From Anaerolineae bacterium (GTDB taxonomy: Bacteria > Chloroflexota > Anaerolineae > S140-20): a stretch of 12,674 nucleotides of DNA. Both the position numbers and the translations under genes were made by a program. Below, piece by piece: positions 1 to 12,034 of this stretch. The notes under the pieces are model-generated. The model saw only the letters and a list, made by a program, of their open reading frames with translations. It was not told the DNA's origin and searched no databases. The DNA lies in the NCBI GenBank assembly GCA_027021705.1, contig JALUTT010000054.1:1-12674 (forward strand), read 5' to 3'. The first letter of the stretch is position 1. Every line of letters begins with the position of its first letter.

Positions 1-149
1 AGGTGCTGATATAGCAGGTCTCGGAACCGGCGAAGTTGGGATTCGCTCATACTCCCAACTTTGCCCGGTTCCGGCCTGATTGTCAAGTCCTCCCAAGGAT
101 GGGAGCAGCTTTGTCAAAAGTCCAATAATATATTACATAAGGAGGATTA
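1..149 (+). promoter_or_regulatory. CRISPR leader (possibly partial)
   Basis: Non-coding, directly abuts the first intact repeat, and has an AT-rich stretch at 111-149 (ttgtcaaaagtccaataatatattacataaggaggatta) in an otherwise GC-rich context. TTGTCA at 111-116 and TAATAT/TATATT at 126-134 are promoter-like, but their spacing is not canonical. Confidence 0.8.
22..73. repeat. Imperfect inverted repeat (about 20-bp arms) in or upstream of the leader; possible terminator or protein-binding site
   Basis: cggaaccggcgaagttggga (22-41) pairs with tcccaactttgcccggttccg (53-73), with one bulge, one G-U pair and an 11-nt loop. There is no clear poly-U tail. Confidence 0.7.
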
Positions 150-3100
150 GTCCCACCCCACAGAATCCCGACCGAGGGATTGAAACAGCATACTGATAAT
201 CTTCCTTGTCAACACTAATCTGAGTCCCACCCCACAGAATCCCGACCGAGGGATTGAAACTCGTATAACCATCTTAAACTCTCCTTACCGAATAAGTCCC
301 ACCCCACAGAATCCCGACCGAGGGATTGAAACATAAAGGAATTCCCTCTAGCAAAAAAGGCAGGAAAAAGTCCCACCCCACAGAATCCCGACCGAGGGAT
401 TGAAACTTCTCTTTTAATTTCGTCGGTTGCGGTGATTGTGGTCCCACCCCACAGAATCCCGACCGAGGGATTGAAACTCCCCGGCCGCATTCGATTCATC
501 TATGTAGGCGGCCGTCCCACCCCACAGAATCCCGACCGAGGGATTGAAACCGCCGGAGCCGGCCGTCCGCTCTGCGAGCAGCTCGAGTCCCACCCCACAG
601 AATCCCGACCGAGGGATTGAAACCGTGGTCGTTGTGGAACGTGCGCAGCTCTTCGGCCAGGTCCCACCCCACAGAATCCCGACCGAGGGATTGAAACCGT
701 AGGCCCCCTGCCCGGAAGTTGGTGTACATCTTGGGTCCCACCCCACAGAATCCCGACCGAGGGATTGAAACGGGCTCTATAAGGCCGGCCTGAGCACCAC
801 GGAGATCGTCCCACCCCACAGAATCCCGACCGAGGGATTGAAACCTCCTGGATGAATCCCCAGATTTTCTGGATGGCCGGGTCCCACCCCACAGAATCCC
901 GACCGAGGGATTGAAACTCTGACCGGTTTGGCCTATCTGAGACCTTAACACTCGTCCCACCCCACAGAATCCCGACCGAGGGATTGAAACACTCTATCGC
1001 CAATTGCGCCCTGATTTATTGCAACGGTCCCACCCCACAGAATCCCGACCGAGGGATTGAAACTTAAGAGCAAGGCCAGAGGATTCATCCTCTTGGGGCG
1101 TCCCACCCCACAGAATCCCGACCGAGGGATTGAAACTTATCAAGACACAATTCCAGATCCAGATATTTAAGGAGTCCCACCCCACAGAATCCCGACCGAG
1201 GGATTGAAACCATTATCACATTTAACCTATTCGGGCGCCCCGGACGGGTCCCACCCCACAGAATCCCGACCGAGGGATTGAAACAATCCGCTTTGCGTCA
1301 TTAGCAAGGCTTTTGACACAAGTCCCACCCCACAGAATCCCGACCGAGGGATTGAAACTCTGACCGGTTTGGCCTATCTGAGACCTTAACACTCGTCCCA
1401 CCCCACAGAATCCCGACCGAGGGATTGAAACAGGCGCTTCTACTTCCGCCTAGCGCTGGCGCTGGGGAGTCCCACCCCACAGAATCCCGACCGAGGGATT
1501 GAAACGAGGGATAGCGCAGCTACCGGAACCGTTCCGCCACGTCCCACCCCACAGAATCCCGACCGAGGGATTGAAACACCTTTCCGGCTCCCCAGCCGGA
1601 CCGGAGACCGGCGTCCCACCCCACAGAATCCCGACCGAGGGATTGAAACTCCCCCACGGACACCTTGTAGAGCGTGCTCTTGGCGTCCCACCCCACAGAA
1701 TCCCGACCGAGGGATTGAAACATCCCACTCTGCGGGATGGGGCTTGAGAGATTGAGCGGTCCCACCCCACAGAATCCCGACCGAGGGATTGAAACCTCGA
1801 GCAGGACCGCGAAGCGGCCCCGCTCCTCGAAGTCCCACCCCACAGAATCCCGACCGAGGGATTGAAACGGGATTCTGTGGGGCGGAGAACGCGCGACTTT
1901 AGAAAGTCCCACCCCACAGAATCCCGACCGAGGGATTGAAACATCCGGGATGCTGATGCCCTTTTCCTTGATCTGCTCGTCCCACCCCACAGAATCCCGA
2001 CCGAGGGATTGAAACGCCCTCTGGGCAATCCCCATCCTGATTAAGACCGCGTCCCACCCCACAGAATCCCGACCGAGGGATTGAAACCATTGCGGATTCC
2101 GACCGGGAAGCGGATATACCCTCCGTCCCACCCCACAGAATCCCGACCGAGGGATTGAAACCGGGGGGTGCTGCCCCGTGTCTATAGGGCTGAGGTGGTC
2201 CCACCCCACAGAATCCCGACCGAGGGATTGAAACGCAGCCCTCTTCGCTGGACAGCACGTCCACGAAGATGTCCCACCCCACAGAATCCCGACCGAGGGA
2301 TTGAAACCACCGGGATTGCTCATCGCATCAAGCGACACGCAGGCGTCCCACCCCACAGAATCCCGACCGAGGGATTGAAACCAGAAATGCCTGGAGGTTA
2401 TGCAGAATTTGGCCGAGTCCCACCCCACAGAATCCCGACCGAGGGATTGAAACTGTGCCCAGGCTGGAGGACGACGGCAAATACTATGTGGTCCCACCCC
2501 ACAGAATCCCGACCGAGGGATTGAAACCGGTCCACGTTCACCGACTATGGCCCATCCGCCGGAGTCCCACCCCACAGAATCCCGACCGAGGGATTGAAAC
2601 CTGAAGGAGGATGACTTCTCCTTCAGCATCCTCCGAGTCCCACCCCACAGAATCCCGACCGAGGGATTGAAACTGGAGGTGGTCCACGCCCCGACCGGCA
2701 ACCCCGCCTAGTCCCACCCCACAGAATCCCGACCGAGGGATTGAAACCATTAAATCTATGGTGGGAATTCCAGAAAACCGATGAGTCCCACCCCACAGAA
2801 TCCCGACCGAGGGATTGAAACCTCTAATGAGCTCCGAAACAGATTATAACGCTCAAGTCCCACCCCACAGAATCCCGACCGAGGGATTGAAACTGGCCAA
2901 ATTAGCAGTCATTCGCAATCAAAATGGCAAGTCCCACCCCACAGAATCCCGACCGAGGGATTGAAACAGGAGGAGATTAGAAAAACTAAGGCCCCGAACT
3001 AACGTCCCACCCCACAGAATCCCGACCGAGGGATTGAAACTACCTCGGCTTCTGGCCCGATTTACTTAGCTACCAGGTCCCACCCCACAGAATCCCGACC

Positions 3101-6100
3101 GAGGGATTGAAACGCAATCTTCCCCTTTTCCCGGACAAACACGGGAGAGGTCCCACCCCACAGAATCCCGACCGAGGGATTGAAACCTCCTCAGGGTTCC
3201 ACTCCACGGGAACGGGGTTGGGGGTCCCACCCCACAGAATCCCGACCGAGGGATTGAAACTTGAATTTGTTTCTCGGCCTTTAACGATTGATGGAAGTCC
3301 CACCCCACAGAATCCCGACCGAGGGATTGAAACTAGAACAGCCACTTCGAGCGTCCGACCGGGGCCAGTCCCACCCCACAGAATCCCGACCGAGGGATTG
3401 AAACTCAATAGCAATTCCAGCCCTAAATGAGAAAATTGAAGTCCCACCCCACAGAATCCCGACCGAGGGATTGAAACACCTACAATGAAGCCGTTGCGTT
3501 CTATAACAAACCGGTGTCCCACCCCACAGAATCCCGACCGAGGGATTGAAACTTCGAGGTGAACTTCTCGATGCTGAACGACGCTATTGTCCCACCCCAC
3601 AGAATCCCGACCGAGGGATTGAAACGGGAGGAGGATATAGTACTCAAGTACTACGATTAGGTCCCACCCCACAGAATCCCGACCGAGGGATTGAAACTTC
3701 CTTAATCCTCTTATTTTCCCTAACTCAATGTTAAGTCCCACCCCACAGAATCCCGACCGAGGGATTGAAACTAACAGCATTAGCAGTAAACGAAGACTTC
3801 ATCTGTAGTCCCACCCCACAGAATCCCGACCGAGGGATTGAAACTTCGACGGAGATTTTGAAGCTGTCGAAGAATTTATTGTCCCACCCCACAGAATCCC
3901 GACCGAGGGATTGAAACATTGAGCGAAACGGTCCCGTTATCGGCTACCGCTTTGGGTCCCACCCCACAGAATCCCGACCGAGGGATTGAAACTCCAAAGC
4001 CCGTTCCTTGTTGAGGTAAGCCCGAAGAGTCCCACCCCACAGAATCCCGACCGAGGGATTGAAACGCCCGGGCGCCGAGGCGCCGGCGTCGCCGGGCGAG
4101 TCCCACCCCACAGAATCCCGACCGAGGGATTGAAACGGGCCACAGGAGGGCCCGGAACCCCACGGGGATCTCCGTCCCACCCCACAGAATCCCGACCGAG
4201 GGATTGAAACGGTTCTCCGTAGCAGCCTCTCCCGCAGCCCGTCAACGTCCCACCCCACAGAATCCCGACCGAGGGATTGAAACCCGCCGCAGAACCGCCG
4301 CCACCACTCGCCCCGTCGGCGTCCCACCCCACAGAATCCCGACCGAGGGATTGAAACAGCCGGGAAGACACTTCTGGCTGGCCCTCGGCATCGGGGGTCC
4401 CACCCCACAGAATCCCGACCGAGGGATTGAAACAGCGGCTGGTTTCATTTCCCCATCTCCAGGATGGCCGGTCCCACCCCACAGAATCCCGACCGAGGGA
4501 TTGAAACCGCGAAGGGATCATCGAAGACTCCCATGACTTCCAGGTCCCACCCCACAGAATCCCGACCGAGGGATTGAAACTCCCCGGCCAGCGCGTCGAA
4601 ATCGCTCTCCTCCAGGTCCCACCCCACAGAATCCCGACCGAGGGATTGAAACAAGAACCAGGACCGGGCCACCATCGGGGGCCTTGAAGTCCCACCCCAC
4701 AGAATCCCGACCGAGGGATTGAAACCTGGCGCCGGGGGCATCCTGGCCCTCGGAGAGTCTCGTCCCACCCCACAGAATCCCGACCGAGGGATTGAAACAC
4801 GTCCTTCGTCGGCCGCCGCATATTGGCCAGCATAGTCCCACCCCACAGAATCCCGACCGAGGGATTGAAACGCCACCATCTGGGCCGCCGTCGAGCCGCT
4901 GGAGCATGTCCCACCCCACAGAATCCCGACCGAGGGATTGAAACGCCGACGCCGGCAACTTCCACGCCGAGATGGATCGGTCCCACCCCACAGAATCCCG
5001 ACCGAGGGATTGAAACCACGGCGAGGAGCCCCGCGAAGGCCCCTCGCCGGCGGGTCCCACCCCACAGAATCCCGACCGAGGGATTGAAACGGGAGCCCTC
5101 GGAATCGCCCCTCGGCATCATAGAGAGTCCCACCCCACAGAATCCCGACCGAGGGATTGAAACTCGGCCTCGGGCGCGGCCGAGGCGATGGTGGGGCTCG
5201 TCCCACCCCACAGAATCCCGACCGAGGGATTGAAACCGAGCCGGCCGAGCCGATTGACGACAAATTGAGCGCCGTCCCACCCCACAGAATCCCGACCGAG
5301 GGATTGAAACTCCGACCTGGCCGAGGCCCTCAAAAACGTGGGGCCCAGTCCCACCCCACAGAATCCCGACCGAGGGATTGAAACGAAGACCCGCACCGCC
5401 CCCTCCAGGACAGCTTGCCGGGTCCCACCCCACAGAATCCCGACCGAGGGATTGAAACCCAACCGCAGTCGTACCCTGCCCCGCACATCGAACATGTCCC
5501 ACCCCACAGAATCCCGACCGAGGGATTGAAACCGCGGCCCCCCGCCACGGGGCGTCCGGGCCGTCGTCGTCCCACCCCACAGAATCCCGACCGAGGGATT
5601 GAAACTTGTCAGGGCAACAGCAGACGGGACACTCCCCCTAGGTCCCACCCCACAGAATCCCGACCGAGGGATTGAAACCTCGTCGAAGACCAGGGTCACC
5701 GGGTAGGCGAGCCGGGTCCCACCCCACAGAATCCCGACCGAGGGATTGAAACTATACTCCACCGAAGCGTTTGTAGAGCTTGTCTGCAAGTCCCACCCCA
5801 CAGAATCCCGACCGAGGGATTGAAACTCGCCCCCGAGGAGGCAGGCGAGAGGGGACCTCGTGTCCCACCCCACAGAATCCCGACCGAGGGATTGAAACCG
5901 GTCAGCTTCTGGTCCTCAGAGCCGTTGTAGAAGGCCGGTCCCACCCCACAGAATCCCGACCGAGGGATTGAAACCTGGAAGCCTACGACATTCTGGAACA
6001 GGGTCTCAAGGTCCCACCCCACAGAATCCCGACCGAGGGATTGAAACGGTTTCCAGGTGGCAGGTGGTTCTGCCGCAGAACCAGGTCCCACCCCACAGAA

Positions 6101-9100
6101 TCCCGACCGAGGGATTGAAACATAGCCCTGCTCGCCAACCTCAATACCTGCTCGGCACGTCCCACCCCACAGAATCCCGACCGAGGGATTGAAACTCTCC
6201 CGGTCGCCACCGGAGACCAGCCGCTTGGGTCCCACCCCACAGAATCCCGACCGAGGGATTGAAACTTCCGCTCAACCTCGACATCCCAGAACGACATCAG
6301 GTCCCACCCCACAGAATCCCGACCGAGGGATTGAAACTGTCCAGGTGATGGATGACTCGGTGATACCCCCAAACGTCCCACCCCACAGAATCCCGACCGA
6401 GGGATTGAAACCCGCCAGAACGCGCAGGAGTGGTACGGCAGGATGTGTCCCACCCCACAGAATCCCGACCGAGGGATTGAAACTGTCTTTAAGGATGAGC
6501 ACCACGCCCTGGTTAACAGCGGTCCCACCCCACAGAATCCCGACCGAGGGATTGAAACCATCCAGCTAAGGACACCGGGATCAAACACCTGTGCCCGGTC
6601 CCACCCCACAGAATCCCGACCGAGGGATTGAAACCTCCTCCAGCACCCCCATTGCTTTGAGGATACCGGCCAGGTCCCACCCCACAGAATCCCGACCGAG
6701 GGATTGAAACCGCCTTGATTTCTTCCATCGCGGTCTCCTTTCCGGCGTCCCACCCCACAGAATCCCGACCGAGGGATTGAAACCGTCTTCGGGGACCGAG
6801 AGGGGGCCGGGACAGGAAATGGTCCCACCCCACAGAATCCCGACCGAGGGATTGAAACGGGCCAGAAGACGCGGAGTGTGATTCCACCACCGCGTCCCAC
6901 CCCACAGAATCCCGACCGAGGGATTGAAACACTACGTGGCTGCTCTGACCGAGGTGGCGGACGTTGGTCCCACCCCACAGAATCCCGACCGAGGGATTGA
7001 AACCGGCTGGCGGGGGCTTCTGGCGGGGCTCCGCGCCGCGTCCCACCCCACAGAATCCCGACCGAGGGATTGAAACGTTCCCGGCCCTCGCTGGGCTGGG
7101 GGGGGCGGCTCCGGTCCCACCCCACAGAATCCCGACCGAGGGATTGAAACGCTATTTGACCTGAAGCGGGCAATGGCGAGGCTGTGGTCCCACCCCACAG
7201 AATCCCGACCGAGGGATTGAAACTCAGGTGCCCTGCCGTTGACTATGCGAAGTAGGCCGTCCCACCCCACAGAATCCCGACCGAGGGATTGAAACCGGAC
7301 CTCGCCCGTCTGTTCGTCAACCGTAGTCCTGTCCCACCCCACAGAATCCCGACCGAGGGATTGAAACACCCTGCGGGACGGCGGATGTTATACTATCATC
7401 CCTGGTCCCACCCCACAGAATCCCGACCGAGGGATTGAAACCACAGGACCCGGTAGGCCCGCAGCATAGAGAGAAAGTCCCACCCCACAGAATCCCGACC
7501 GAGGGATTGAAACCAGCGCTTCCTACTTTCCCTGTTCCCGAACGGAGAGTCCCACCCCACAGAATCCCGACCGAGGGATTGAAACTCCCACGGCAGACGC
7601 ATACGGAGCAAGCTCCGGCTGGTCCCACCCCACAGAATCCCGACCGAGGGATTGAAACACCATGACGTGTCCGTCAACCTGTGCCCACATACTACGTCCC
7701 ACCCCACAGAATCCCGACCGAGGGATTGAAACCGGGAATGTGCCGACCCTGATTGAGGAATGGGAAGAGTCCCACCCCACAGAATCCCGACCGAGGGATT
7801 GAAACCCCAGACGATGGGGCGATCCGACATATCGTGTCTCAGTCCCACCCCACAGAATCCCGACCGAGGGATTGAAACGGCCGGGCGGCATATGACACCC
7901 CGACTCCCCTTGGTCCCACCCCACAGAATCCCGACCGAGGGATTGAAACCTACAATCCTTACCATGACAGCAGAGGGAGATTTGCGTCCCACCCCACAGA
8001 ATCCCGACCGAGGGATTGAAACCCCCTGGAGAGTGGAGGTCCATCGCGGCATGAGCGGGTCCCACCCCACAGAATCCCGACCGAGGGATTGAAACGGTCC
8101 AGTCCTGCGCCTCCTTCAAGAGGCGCAGGGGTCCCACCCCACAGAATCCCGACCGAGGGATTGAAACGGCCCGAAGGCCGCGGACGTAGTGGAACACCTG
8201 ATCGTCCCACCCCACAGAATCCCGACCGAGGGATTGAAACCTCTTCCCCTTGCTCTTCCCCTTTCCCTTGCTCCTGGTCCCACCCCACAGAATCCCGACC
8301 GAGGGATTGAAACGGAGAACAACCAGGTTGTATATGATGCGGAGAAGGCGTCCCACCCCACAGAATCCCGACCGAGGGATTGAAACTTCCCCTATCCCCC
8401 AGGTTTGTGGCCTTGCGCCACGGTCCCACCCCACAGAATCCCGACCGAGGGATTGAAACTTCCCTTCTTCTTCCACTCGGGAGGAGAAGTTATAAGTCCC
8501 ACCCCACAGAATCCCGACCGAGGGATTGAAACAGGACCTATGATACCCTGACCAAGGTGATCAGGGCGGTCCCACCCCACAGAATCCCGACCGAGGGATT
8601 GAAACCAGGAGTTCTAGAGAGGCATCGAGACGCCGTATCGCGTCCCACCCCACAGAATCCCGACCGAGGGATTGAAACTTTCGGGTAAATCTGTCAACCC
8701 TCTCCCAACCTCCTGGGTCCCACCCCACAGAATCCCGACCGAGGGATTGAAACGTCATACAACCACACCTTACGCGGGAGATCAACCTTGAGTCCCACCC
8801 CACAGAATCCCGACCGAGGGATTGAAACGGGCATCGAGTAGACCCCTTCTCCGGGGAGATCCTGGGTCCCACCCCACAGAATCCCGACCGAGGGATTGAA
8901 ACCCGCTTCTCAGGCGCTCTGCCTGGAAGCACCCTCGGGTCCCACCCCACAGAATCCCGACCGAGGGATTGAAACTCGGACCACCAGATGGGAGGGTCCG
9001 GGTTCGACGTGCGTCCCACCCCACAGAATCCCGACCGAGGGATTGAAACTGCAGCTCGGGGCTCAGGCTGGCGATCGCCTCCCCCAGTCCCACCCCACAG

Positions 9101-11982
9101 AATCCCGACCGAGGGATTGAAACCTATCGCTCTCCTCTTCCCGAGGAGAACCAACCGCCGTCCCACCCCACAGAATCCCGACCGAGGGATTGAAACCATA
9201 CGGATAGGGGAGTGTTCCTGCTACCAGACCCCAAGTCCCACCCCACAGAATCCCGACCGAGGGATTGAAACCAAATCCGCCGGATAGCACACGGATTAGC
9301 GTGTGATGTCCCACCCCACAGAATCCCGACCGAGGGATTGAAACCCGCCCCTGCTCTTGGAGCGGGAGCCCTTGTACTTGGTCCCACCCCACAGAATCCC
9401 GACCGAGGGATTGAAACCCGGATCATAGGCGATCAGAGCGCGGGCGACCTCGGGTCCCACCCCACAGAATCCCGACCGAGGGATTGAAACCCGCACTCCC
9501 TTTATGGAGATCGTGCTCCTCGGATAGTCCCACCCCACAGAATCCCGACCGAGGGATTGAAACGGCCAGAGCGTCTGCGTGTTGCTGGAGTTGCGTGCGG
9601 TCCCACCCCACAGAATCCCGACCGAGGGATTGAAACAACATAGCACTCGCAACCGACCGACCGATCATCTACCGTCCCACCCCACAGAATCCCGACCGAG
9701 GGATTGAAACGCTCTACCGCTGGAGGCTCAATGATGGGTTTAGCACGGTCCCACCCCACAGAATCCCGACCGAGGGATTGAAACTCTGGTTGCGCGGCCC
9801 TCTCTCTTAGCGAAGAGGGCTGTCCCACCCCACAGAATCCCGACCGAGGGATTGAAACTTTATCGGCAAAGACGTGGTATCCCACATCCTGCATGTCCCA
9901 CCCCACAGAATCCCGACCGAGGGATTGAAACGCAAATGCGATAAGGAGATCTCCGGGTCACTGGATATGTCCCACCCCACAGAATCCCGACCGAGGGATT
10001 GAAACAGCGGCTATTACCTCCTCACGCTCCAGCAGGAGGAGGTCCCACCCCACAGAATCCCGACCGAGGGATTGAAACTTGCCCACATCCGAGGTGGTAC
10101 TCCATCCCCGGCGGGTCCCACCCCACAGAATCCCGACCGAGGGATTGAAACCTGTCCAGCGAAGATGGCTGGAGCCGCGCCATAGCGGGTCCCACCCCAC
10201 AGAATCCCGACCGAGGGATTGAAACCGATCTGGTCGGGGCTGATGGGGGAGAAGCTATCCCGTCCCACCCCACAGAATCCCGACCGAGGGATTGAAACCT
10301 TCCTCCTGTAAAGGGGAAGGACAGGAACGAGAGGAGGTCCCACCCCACAGAATCCCGACCGAGGGATTGAAACCGGTTCACCCCCTCCCTTGACCGGGCT
10401 GACCTGGAGGTGTCCCACCCCACAGAATCCCGACCGAGGGATTGAAACAAGCTGGAGAGTCGCTCTTCGGTTGCGATCAGCCGCGTCCCACCCCACAGAA
10501 TCCCGACCGAGGGATTGAAACCTCTCCCACAGAATCCCGACCAAGGGATCAGCACCTTGTCCCACCCCACAGAATCCCGACCGAGGGATTGAAACGATCA
10601 GAGCGAAGAGGTTGACATCTTTTTCCGGGAAGTCCCACCCCACAGAATCCCGACCGAGGGATTGAAACCTCCCGGAGCTCCTGGGGGAGGAGTGGGAGGA
10701 GATCGTCCCACCCCACAGAATCCCGACCGAGGGATTGAAACTCCAGTGCGACTTCTCCATCATCCACGATGGAGAAGTCCCACCCCACAGAATCCCGACC
10801 GAGGGATTGAAACCATGCTGGTTTAAGTTCTTGGATGTGTTTTGAGATAAGTCCCACCCCACAGAATCCCGACCGAGGGATTGAAACGCAGCCGTAGAAG
10901 ATTAGCACGCTCTCCAACTCCCGTTGGTCCCACCCCACAGAATCCCGACCGAGGGATTGAAACAGCCCCTCCTCCCTGCCATACGCTCCCGCGCATAGCA
11001 GTCCCACCCCACAGAATCCCGACCGAGGGATTGAAACCGCAGACGGCCGTTCTCACCGTATCTGGCGGTCTTAAGTCCCACCCCACAGAATCCCGACCGA
11101 GGGATTGAAACCGGATGAGAGCCAAATCCGAGATGCGCTTGAATATGGTCCCACCCCACAGAATCCCGACCGAGGGATTGAAACCTCCTCCTTCCCACCC
11201 TGCGCCGAGGGGGAGAGCGCGGTCCCACCCCACAGAATCCCGACCGAGGGATTGAAACGGAGATATTATAGGGTTTTTTAAGAATCTGTATGATGTCCCA
11301 CCCCACAGAATCCCGACCGAGGGATTGAAACAGCAACCGGCAACCGATAGCCGACCGATCTACCGTAGTCCCACCCCACAGAATCCCGACCGAGGGATTG
11401 AAACCCTGCCCGGCGGCCTGGCGTGGGGCGCGTCCTCCCCTAGTCCCACCCCACAGAATCCCGACCGAGGGATTGAAACAGCCCCTCCTCCCTGCCATGT
11501 ACCAGCCACTAGCGCAGTCCCACCCCACAGAATCCCGACCGAGGGATTGAAACTGGGGAAGCGAGAAGTGCGGATAGAATACATGGGGGGTCCCACCCCA
11601 CAGAATCCCGACCGAGGGATTGAAACGCGATAAGGCGTCTGGAGGAAAAGCTGTCCTCCATGTCCCACCCCACAGAATCCCGACCGAGGGATTGAAACAG
11701 GGAAGAGATATGGGAACTAGTTGGAGAGGGAAGATGTCCCACCCCACAGAATCCCGACCGAGGGATTGAAACGGGGCGGTCGTCCGGTCGGTGTTGGCCT
11801 CGGGCCGCGTCCCACCCCACAGAATCCCGACCGAGGGATTGAAACCGCGCCTGCGCTGGCGCGGGCGCGGGCTCGGGCCTCGGTCCCACCCCACAGAATC
11901 CCGACCGAGGGATTGAAACGATTACATTAACATCTTGCAGCGCGGCCTTGGGCGGGTCCCACCCCACAGAATCCCGACCGAG
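150..11982 (+). CRISPR. CRISPR array: 161 full 37-bp repeats plus one truncated 27-bp repeat (11956-11982), 161 spacers of 33-39 bp (mean about 36); likely class 1, tentatively type I-D
   Basis: The repeat recurs every ~73 bp from 150-186 to 11883-11919. It contains the hairpin AATCCC-GACCGA-GGGATT and ends in ATTGAAAC, typical of Cas6-processed repeats. Orientation comes from that 3' end and the AT-rich flank on the left. Subtype is inferred from repeat length and style and from implied GTN PAMs; no cas genes are in the window. Confidence 0.99.
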
Positions 11983-11995
11983 CATCTTCTAAATT

Positions 11996-12001
11996 TGTCA
12001 A
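11996..12001 (-). promoter_or_regulatory. Consensus -35 hexamer (TTGACA) at the IS right end, facing outward
   Basis: Plus-strand tgtcaa at 11996-12001. IS110/IS1111 elements typically carry a right-end -35 that pairs with a left-end -10 at the circle junction. No -10 follows in the integrated state (GTCGGG at 17 bp). Confidence 0.6.
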
Positions 12002-12034
12002 GTCGTCGGGAGGCAGGCAGGGGGCAACGGCCGC

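Follow-up and report, generated by a model that had tools for sequence, protein, structure and literature searches.

CRISPR (short palindromic repeats, clustered and regularly interspaced) arrays can end in degenerate terminal repeats. These copies keep the 5′ two-thirds of the repeat and have lost its 3′ end, as has the DNA from which one repeat-like spacer of an Anaerolineae bacterium appears to have been taken. That spacer, the 142nd of its array (S142), is the subject of this report; the array lies in the window analysed here, the entire 12,674-bp contig JALUTT010000054.1 of a metagenome-assembled genome (G000; 5.19 Mb in 183 contigs). Our reading, to which we give a probability of about 0.72, is that S142 is a genuine spacer captured, in the register of the protospacer-adjacent motif (PAM), from a sister copy, in decayed form, of the repeat family to which this array belongs.

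Several described systems resemble it in part. CRISPR arrays are hotspots of spacer capture (PMC5737086), and in Pyrococcus furiosus, as in the Escherichia coli type I-E system cited there, the ordinary adaptation machinery takes array DNA beside a PAM, as it probably did for S142. Those events occurred in the laboratory, from the cells' own arrays, and were mostly self-targeting (PMC5737086), whereas S142 would be natural, retained and derived from a diverged, decayed copy that mismatches the host repeats in the seed. RNA anti-CRISPRs (Racrs) and related solitary units offer another likeness, in that a single repeat-like unit with a Cas6-type hairpin stands outside a functional array, as the source of S142 may have done (PMC10651486). 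Racrs are, however, defined by their inhibitory effect and by a location on viral or plasmid genomes, where a promoter usually precedes them (PMC10651486), whereas the source of S142 is known from 37 nt only; in the available portions of that paper we found no statement on host spacers against Racrs. Virus-borne mini-arrays carry one complete and one truncated repeat close to the host's (PMC6858448; PMC8616872). Such repeats would give protospacers of the kind that S142 implies; none of the viral contigs that we scanned was found to carry this repeat family. The type I-D system of Synechocystis has the same subtype gene set; there, the Cas4-dependent PAM is a GTN lying upstream of the protospacer, and all four GTN motifs license interference (PMC5896167). 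The starts of S142 and of a second spacer of the array, S24, fit a GTN directly upstream. S142 is an uncommon case of an already described kind. A literature search returned nothing explicit on repeat-derived or repeat-like spacers, and we make no claim that they are unpublished.

Spacer 142 and its register

The features at and around S142 are as follows.
10485..10521, + strand: repeat 142, perfect
10522..10558, + strand: spacer 142 (S142), repeat-like, 37 nt
10526..10549, + strand: S142 core, equal to repeat positions 8–31 at 23/24
10534..10549, + strand: hairpin ATCCC-GACCAA-GGGAT, kept with 5 bp and with a G to A change in its loop
10559..10595, + strand: repeat 143, perfect

The sequence of S142, the 142nd of 161 spacers, is CTCTCCCACAGAATCCCGACCAAGGGATCAGCACCTT. 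It starts at repeat position 4 and spans repeat positions 4–37 plus CTT, a 3-nt shift relative to a true repeat, and no spacer remnants are present at its borders with the perfect repeats. Spacer positions 5–28 equal repeat positions 8–31 except for the single G to A change in the hairpin loop, and the ATCCC and GGGAT arms are both kept. On either side of this core, positions 2–4 read TCT for CAC and positions 29–32 read CAGC for TGAA, the TGAAAC of the repeat becoming CAGCAC. Folded alone, the S142 hairpin has a free energy of −7.2 kcal/mol and 5 bp, compared with −8.6 kcal/mol and 6 bp for the true repeat. The initial annotation had described a near-complete copy of the repeat, of normal spacer length and with its stem kept, between two perfect repeats, and every descriptive detail is borne out.

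We scored repeat likeness for all 241 spacers of the three arrays of the genome, using an ungapped local score of +1/−2. S142 scored 21, S24 scored 14 and the next best spacer scored 9. The maximum among shuffled spacers was 11 (n = 4820, same local score), which excludes chance similarity for S142. No other copy of S142 is present in the genome among matches with ≤7 mismatches, and the genome contains no other solitary repeat-like unit detectable with the 24-nt repeat core at ≤6 mismatches. S142 is therefore a bona fide spacer in being a spacer-length insert, flanked by intact repeats on both sides and unique in the genome.

S24 has the following position.
1869..1905, + strand: spacer 24 (S24), first 14 nt the reverse complement of repeat positions 7–20

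Judged from its sequence, S24 is the second repeat-derived spacer of the array. In repeat orientation its source reads TTTCTAAAGTCGCGCGTTCTCCG and then CCCCACAGAATCCC, with a 5′ part that is non-host. The S24 and S142 sources are different units, with 3 of the 17 comparable positions differing. S24 matches all 242 perfect repeats of the genome without a mismatch over its 14 PAM-proximal nt, and has 11–21 mismatches to them over its full length at the sites compared; its predicted CRISPR RNA (crRNA) would be able to pair with 14 nt of each repeat of the precursor crRNA.

The host repeat contains only five GT sites, at position 1 of the + strand and at positions 1, 15, 26 and 31 of the − strand. 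S142 begins at + position 4, directly after the GTC of repeat positions 1–3, and S24 begins at − position 18, directly after the GTC that repeat positions 21–23 give when read on the other strand. By our own estimate, which takes ~35 in-repeat registers per strand, the joint chance of both GTC registers is ~(1/35) × (4/35) = 0.003. A start directly after GTC in both spacers is the signature of adaptation machinery cutting beside its PAM. The two repeat-derived spacers would give an internal, database-free reading of the PAM, and we infer GTN for this organism from their registers together with the subtype. The view of S142 in the initial annotation, as a spacer captured from a repeat-like protospacer in a GTN-compatible register, agrees with its start after GTC and with the type I-D locus described below. 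Comparison of all 241 spacers with the host genome, made for the PAM, gave only chance matches of 17–21 nt, and no true protospacer was found for any spacer, either in the host genome or in phage and plasmid collections searched with the whole window in near mode.

The type I-D system and its repeat family

The array that holds S142 has the following parts.
1..149, + strand: leader, AT-rich beside the first repeat, with TTGTCAA..GTC motifs
150..11992, + strand: type I-D CRISPR array, with 161 spacers between 162 repeats of 37 nt
11956..11992, + strand: degenerate terminal repeat, equal to the repeat through position 27, then CATCTTCTAA

All repeats of the window but one (161 of 162) are perfect copies of GTCCCACCCCACAGAATCCCGACCGAGGGATTGAAAC, and the spacers measure 33–39 nt (n = 161). 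The remaining repeat is the degenerate terminal copy, which we take as an example of 3′-end decay in this repeat family. The 37-nt repeat has an internal hairpin and the 3′ end ATTGAAAC, features that fit type I-D; with this end, Cas6 cleavage would be expected to leave an 8-nt 5′ handle. The position of the leader, the decayed last repeat and the ATTGAAAC 3′ end indicate that the + strand is the transcribed orientation. The same repeat occurs in two further arrays of the genome, on contigs C155 (63 repeats) and C106 (19 repeats), and no spacers are common to the three arrays.

The type I-D signature genes, Cas10d/Csc3, Csc2 (Cas7d) and Csc1 (Cas5d), are found in the same genome, on contig C155 next to the array with the same repeat, and not on the contig of the window. 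Upstream of the C155 array lie genes for Cas10d/Csc3, Csc2, Csc1, four unmatched proteins, Cas3, two Cas6, Cas3′, Cas4 and Cas1d. The type I-D genes among them (Cas10d/Csc3, Csc2, Csc1, Cas3′, Cas6, Cas4 and Cas1d) score above the curated cut-off, with the exception of one of the two Cas6 genes. In bits, with the cut-off in brackets, the scores are 125.8 (60) for TIGR03174, 275.1 (38) for TIGR03157, 135.9 (41.4) for TIGR03159, 179.5 (69.1) for the type I-D Cas3′ and 405.2 (385) for Cas1d. By this gene content the system is assigned to type I-D, at least for adaptation and one effector module. The four unmatched genes are consecutive (positions 1468–6267 of the inspected C155 locus, L006), encode proteins of 768, 313, 254 and 284 amino acids with no Pfam or NCBIfam match, and are embedded in the type I-D locus, with Csc1 on one side and on the other a Cas3 whose type I-G/Cas3-core matches are sub-threshold. 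Together these four genes may make up a divergent second effector module.

We surveyed 400 other genomes of the class for the 24-nt repeat core at ≤3 mismatches. Seven carry it, and their loci were inspected. Functional repeats of the family, taken from the arrays of five of the seven carrier genomes, vary at positions 2–13 (GTCCCAACCAACA, GTCCAAACACACC, GCTAAACCCCACA, GTATCACCACCCA and others), and their positions 14–37 are invariant except for one loop change at position 24. Among the inspected copies, the ATTGAAAC end is lost only in terminal copies (those of the host and of genomes G293 and G314) and in solitary copies (L012, which ends in ...GGAATTGGGGA, and L014, which ends in ...GGGATTGGGCA). 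S142 departs from the host repeat at repeat positions 5–7, which are family-variable, at position 25 in the loop and at positions 32–35 in the handle. Because these differences match the variation of the family combined with its pattern of decay, the source of S142 looks like a decayed copy of a sister repeat rather than like a host repeat that has mutated. None of the 41 spacers in other arrays of the family (partial loci) is repeat-like. Contigs of hydrothermal-vent runs contain the exact host repeat in great abundance, next to other spacers, and one vent-run contig carries the flank seen upstream of the C155 array; relatives with the same repeat are thus common in hydrothermal-vent runs.

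The two solitary repeat-like units, L012 in genome G270 and L014 in genome G029, have related 5′ ends (GCCTGAACGC and GTTTGAACGC, respectively). Their 3′ ends, ATTGGGGA and ATTGGGCA, replace ATTGAAAC, and there are no further repeats within the loci examined. The stem of L012 has a compensatory change (GAATTCC...GGAATT). These could be conserved stand-alone repeat units in cellular genomes.

Source of the sampled copy and rival explanations

We searched for the source of S142 in cellular, metagenomic, viral and plasmid sequence. The host genome contains none (37-mer at ≤7 mismatches, 24-nt core at ≤6), only the window's own genome matched among 41 relatives at ≤3 mismatches, the four genomes of the order contain none, and the sample of 400 other genomes of the class gave the seven family carriers and no source. 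The collections of all species genomes and of metagenome contigs were searched with the same single exact 20-mer, which a source changed within those 20 nt would escape; the former gave two matches, neither extending past the 20-mer, and the latter gave the window itself and one further contig (L005) only. Viral contigs, scanned with seven patterns, gave no match to an S142 31-mer, a repeat-core 22-mer, either S24 pattern or the 5′ 20-mer of S142. Phage and plasmid collections, searched with S142 in distant mode and with the whole window in near mode, gave weak partial matches only. The search for the 37-mer in viral, plasmid and host-genome sequence that the initial annotation had suggested thus yielded no carrier, and neither did the other cellular collections, though a carrier may simply be missing from the databases. 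Of the three kinds of source that it had proposed, a degenerate terminal repeat fits the family data best, and for a Racr or a viral mini-array we found no direct evidence. The 5′ variant of S142 and the loss of ATTGAAAC, seen in terminal and solitary non-functional copies, make the end of a sister array or a stray repeat the most likely source. The terminal repeat of the host itself differs (GAGCATCTTCTAA), which points to the end of another array or to a stray copy. The simplest source is a repeat of a sister array carried by incoming DNA, either its decayed last copy or a stray one, and in our judgement it has close to an even chance of being the true one; a solitary unit of the Racr type or a mini-array is a distinctly weaker candidate.

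A number of observations weigh against capture from a decayed sister copy. The G to A change in the loop of S142 is absent from every family member inspected. Random sampling of a foreign array should hit its many functional repeats more often than its one decayed end. Functional repeats with the CTCT variant would be equally tolerated, so that a hit on a decayed copy speaks mildly for a source in which functional repeats are few or absent, such as a solitary unit or a mini-array. The collections searched yielded no source sequence, and so we infer its PAM, its context and its foreign origin alike. Two partial matches are not fully explained away: the metagenome contig L005 matches S142 positions 13–37 at 25/25, and four related viral contigs (L024, L027, L028 and L029) match S142 positions 8–28 at 21/21. 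Finally, the contig is a metagenome assembly and the reads speak neither for nor against S142; of the 16 public runs found, the best holds 0.10 of the sampled words, and four hydrothermal-vent runs cover repeat parts only, with depths of 1.13, 0, 0 and 0 in the bin 10528–10546.

The two partial matches, to L005 and to the viral group, could mean that the repeat likeness is secondary, S142 being an ordinary gene or phage protospacer that happens to hold ATCCCGACCAAGGGAT, or a spacer–repeat chimera. The L005 match (3001–3020 and flanks) falls inside an E. coli-like SpeD (S-adenosylmethionine decarboxylase) reading frame (...HTYPESHPDQGISTFRADI...), where the remainder matches at 3 of 12 nt and the upstream bases are CCT. 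In the viral group the upstream bases are AGG, with no GTN, and the flanks match at 8 of 19 nt. Exact matches of this length are within reach of chance: from assumed database sizes we estimate ~0.01–0.1 for the 25-mer and ~0.5 for the 21-mer. We rejected both the speD origin and the phage origin, judging each to be a chance match on the palindrome ATCCCGACCAAGGGAT that lacks a GTN and leaves the further CCCACAGA unexplained, and we regard secondary likeness as highly improbable, a chimeric origin being just conceivable. A shade more probable, and still very unlikely, is a perfect copy of a repeat from the host's own arrays that later mutated to escape autoimmunity. Own arrays are capture hotspots (PMC5737086) and the host repeat begins with a valid PAM; against this, eight substitutions would be needed in 34 nt while 161 of the 162 repeats of the window stayed perfect, the changes are clustered in the family-variable 5′ zone and the 3′ handle and are not scattered, and loss of the spacer would be a far easier escape. 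Decay of a repeat in place, after loss of the neighbouring spacers, would account for the position within the array and for the survival of most of the repeat. The 3-nt shift, the exact spacer length, the two adjoining perfect repeats and the lack of spacer remnants are not the geometry that such decay would give, and the shift is the PAM register, common to S24 on the other strand. S142 is best read from its sequence as an ordinary acquisition event rather than as in-place decay, which we find scarcely credible. An assembly artefact is equally hard to credit. It would be favoured by the lack of independent read support and by the window being a whole contig of short-read type, in a repeat-rich metagenome; yet the 13 unique bases on the two sides and the specific point change would not come from collapse or chimerism of identical repeats, and the rest of the array is regular.

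A further alternative is that the source was a viral or plasmid mimic of the repeat, either a Racr solitary unit or the truncated repeat of a mini-array, and that S142 confers immunity against counter-defence. The sampled copy keeps a Cas6-type hairpin without the 3′ handle, as a decoy might, and a source with few functional repeats would explain the hit on a decayed copy. Solitary repeat units mimicking host repeats exist for almost all CRISPR types (PMC10651486). The S24 source, in repeat orientation, is preceded by the AT-rich TTTCTAAAGT, a very weak hint of a promoter. On the other side, viral contigs gave no match to the S142, repeat-core or S24 patterns, and the phage and plasmid collections gave weak partial matches only. 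Two homologous groups account for the 12 viral loci with GAATCCCGACCNAGGGAT, the first coding (eight loci of one family, ..NPDQGI..) and the second intergenic and antisense to its neighbours, without GTN, and the second hairpin arm is absent from the three viral loci with CCCACAGAATCCCGACC. On balance we consider a mimic unlikely, and slightly less likely still the wider proposal that S142 and S24 together are a natural record of a type I-D host immunized against a repeat-mimicking element, an 'anti-anti-CRISPR' memory. If that proposal were true, repeats that start with their own PAM (GTC) would make mimics intrinsically easy to sample, and the crRNA of S142 would also hold an internal Cas6-type hairpin.

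The viral match of the L024 group lies in a conserved intergenic element of ~125 nt (positions 1470–1620 of L024; also present in L027–L029), between HNH and DUF1376-like genes and antisense to both. The element has a hairpin identical to that of S142, followed by a long GC-rich, terminator-like hairpin with a T-run. Rfam returned sub-threshold matches only for this element (PK-repBA, E = 0.01) and nothing above the gathering score for the neighbourhood of S142. A tRNA-like reading of a weak Rhodococcus phage match (23/25, E = 0.1) was rejected on inspection by eye only, and a 10-nt reverse-complement match between window positions 1–10 and S142 positions 27–36 is at chance level.

Proposed history, wider array and implications

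If S142 was captured from a decayed sister copy, Cas4–Cas1d, with a presumed Cas2, would have excised a prespacer of 37 nt from DNA, incoming or co-resident, that bore a diverged copy of the repeat. The prespacer would have begun directly after the initial GTN of the source copy (GTC in the host repeat) and been integrated at the leader, and ~141 later acquisitions would have moved it down the array. The sampled copy would have had CTCT for CCAC at repeat positions 4–7 and CAGCAC for TGAAAC, with the ATTGAAAC handle lost. Its carrier may have been another strain, a plasmid or another mobile element; in a foreign array, the repeat would start GT.CTCTCCCACAG.

The S142 unit would be transcribed, and Cas6d would cut after the hairpins of repeats 142 and 143 to give a crRNA with the 8-nt handle AUUGAAAC (PMC10212523). 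Together with Cascade, this crRNA would be directed against DNA that has the diverged copy next to a GTN. The 242 perfect repeats of the genome are all GTC-flanked and so partial targets, and S142 mismatches each of them at 8–11 of 37 positions, always including positions 2, 3, 4, 22 and 29–32; it is not a self-targeting spacer. The type I seed comprises the first 8–10 nt except position 6 (PMC10212523), and since the mismatches at positions 2–4 fall within it, autoimmunity should be prevented. The earlier proposal that these seed mismatches explain the tolerance of S142 is a reasonable one, and the mismatches hold for all of the perfect repeats. The internal hairpin of S142 keeps 5 bp and a 6-nt loop, with a changed base at the cleavage side, and Cas6d would bind by sequence and structure; an internal Cas6 cut within S142 is possible.

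Other features of the three arrays were observed in passing. Spacers 11 and 17 of the window are one identical 36-mer, and the unit of repeat 11, spacer 11 and repeat 12 (881–991) equals that of repeat 17, spacer 17 and repeat 18 (1322–1432) over 111 nt, reflecting either duplication of the unit or acquisition of the same protospacer twice. Spacers 148 (10964–11000) and 155 (11480–11516) have their first 19 nt in common (AGCCCCTCCTCCCTGCCAT) and then diverge; they may correspond to variants of a single target or to two targets that are related. In the leader (80–105) lies the motif TTGTCAAGTC, which recurs in the same orientation 3 bases past the terminal repeat (11995–12020), and a third similar copy, TTGTCAAAAGTCC, lies at ~110–122. 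In the C106 array (L007, reverse strand, first ~180 nt), the degenerate terminal repeat is the same as that of the window and the trailer is near-identical. This array starts with a repeat truncated to CGACCGAGGGATTGAAAC, directly past an element rich in GGTTACG/CGTAACC motifs, and a similar motif cluster is found past the solitary degenerate repeat L014 in genome G029. The element may be mobile, either carrying repeats of this family or using them as insertion sites. In the C155 array (19131–23706) all 63 repeats are perfect, with a decayed copy at neither end; a leader-like motif, TTGTCAAAAGTCCAATA(A)TATATTA, lies in the last 145 nt of the contig, 12 nt past the last repeat, in the opposite orientation and pointing into the array.

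S142 suggests that CRISPR repeats can be sampled as protospacers in nature, and that the resulting spacers can be kept when their seed differs from the host repeats. Should its source turn out to be a mobile element that mimics repeats, the spacer would be notable: a mimic borne by a virus or plasmid would be evidence that RNA anti-CRISPR loci can be targeted by hosts. If the source was the array end of another strain, S142 would record DNA exchange between CRISPR-bearing relatives in a hydrothermal community.

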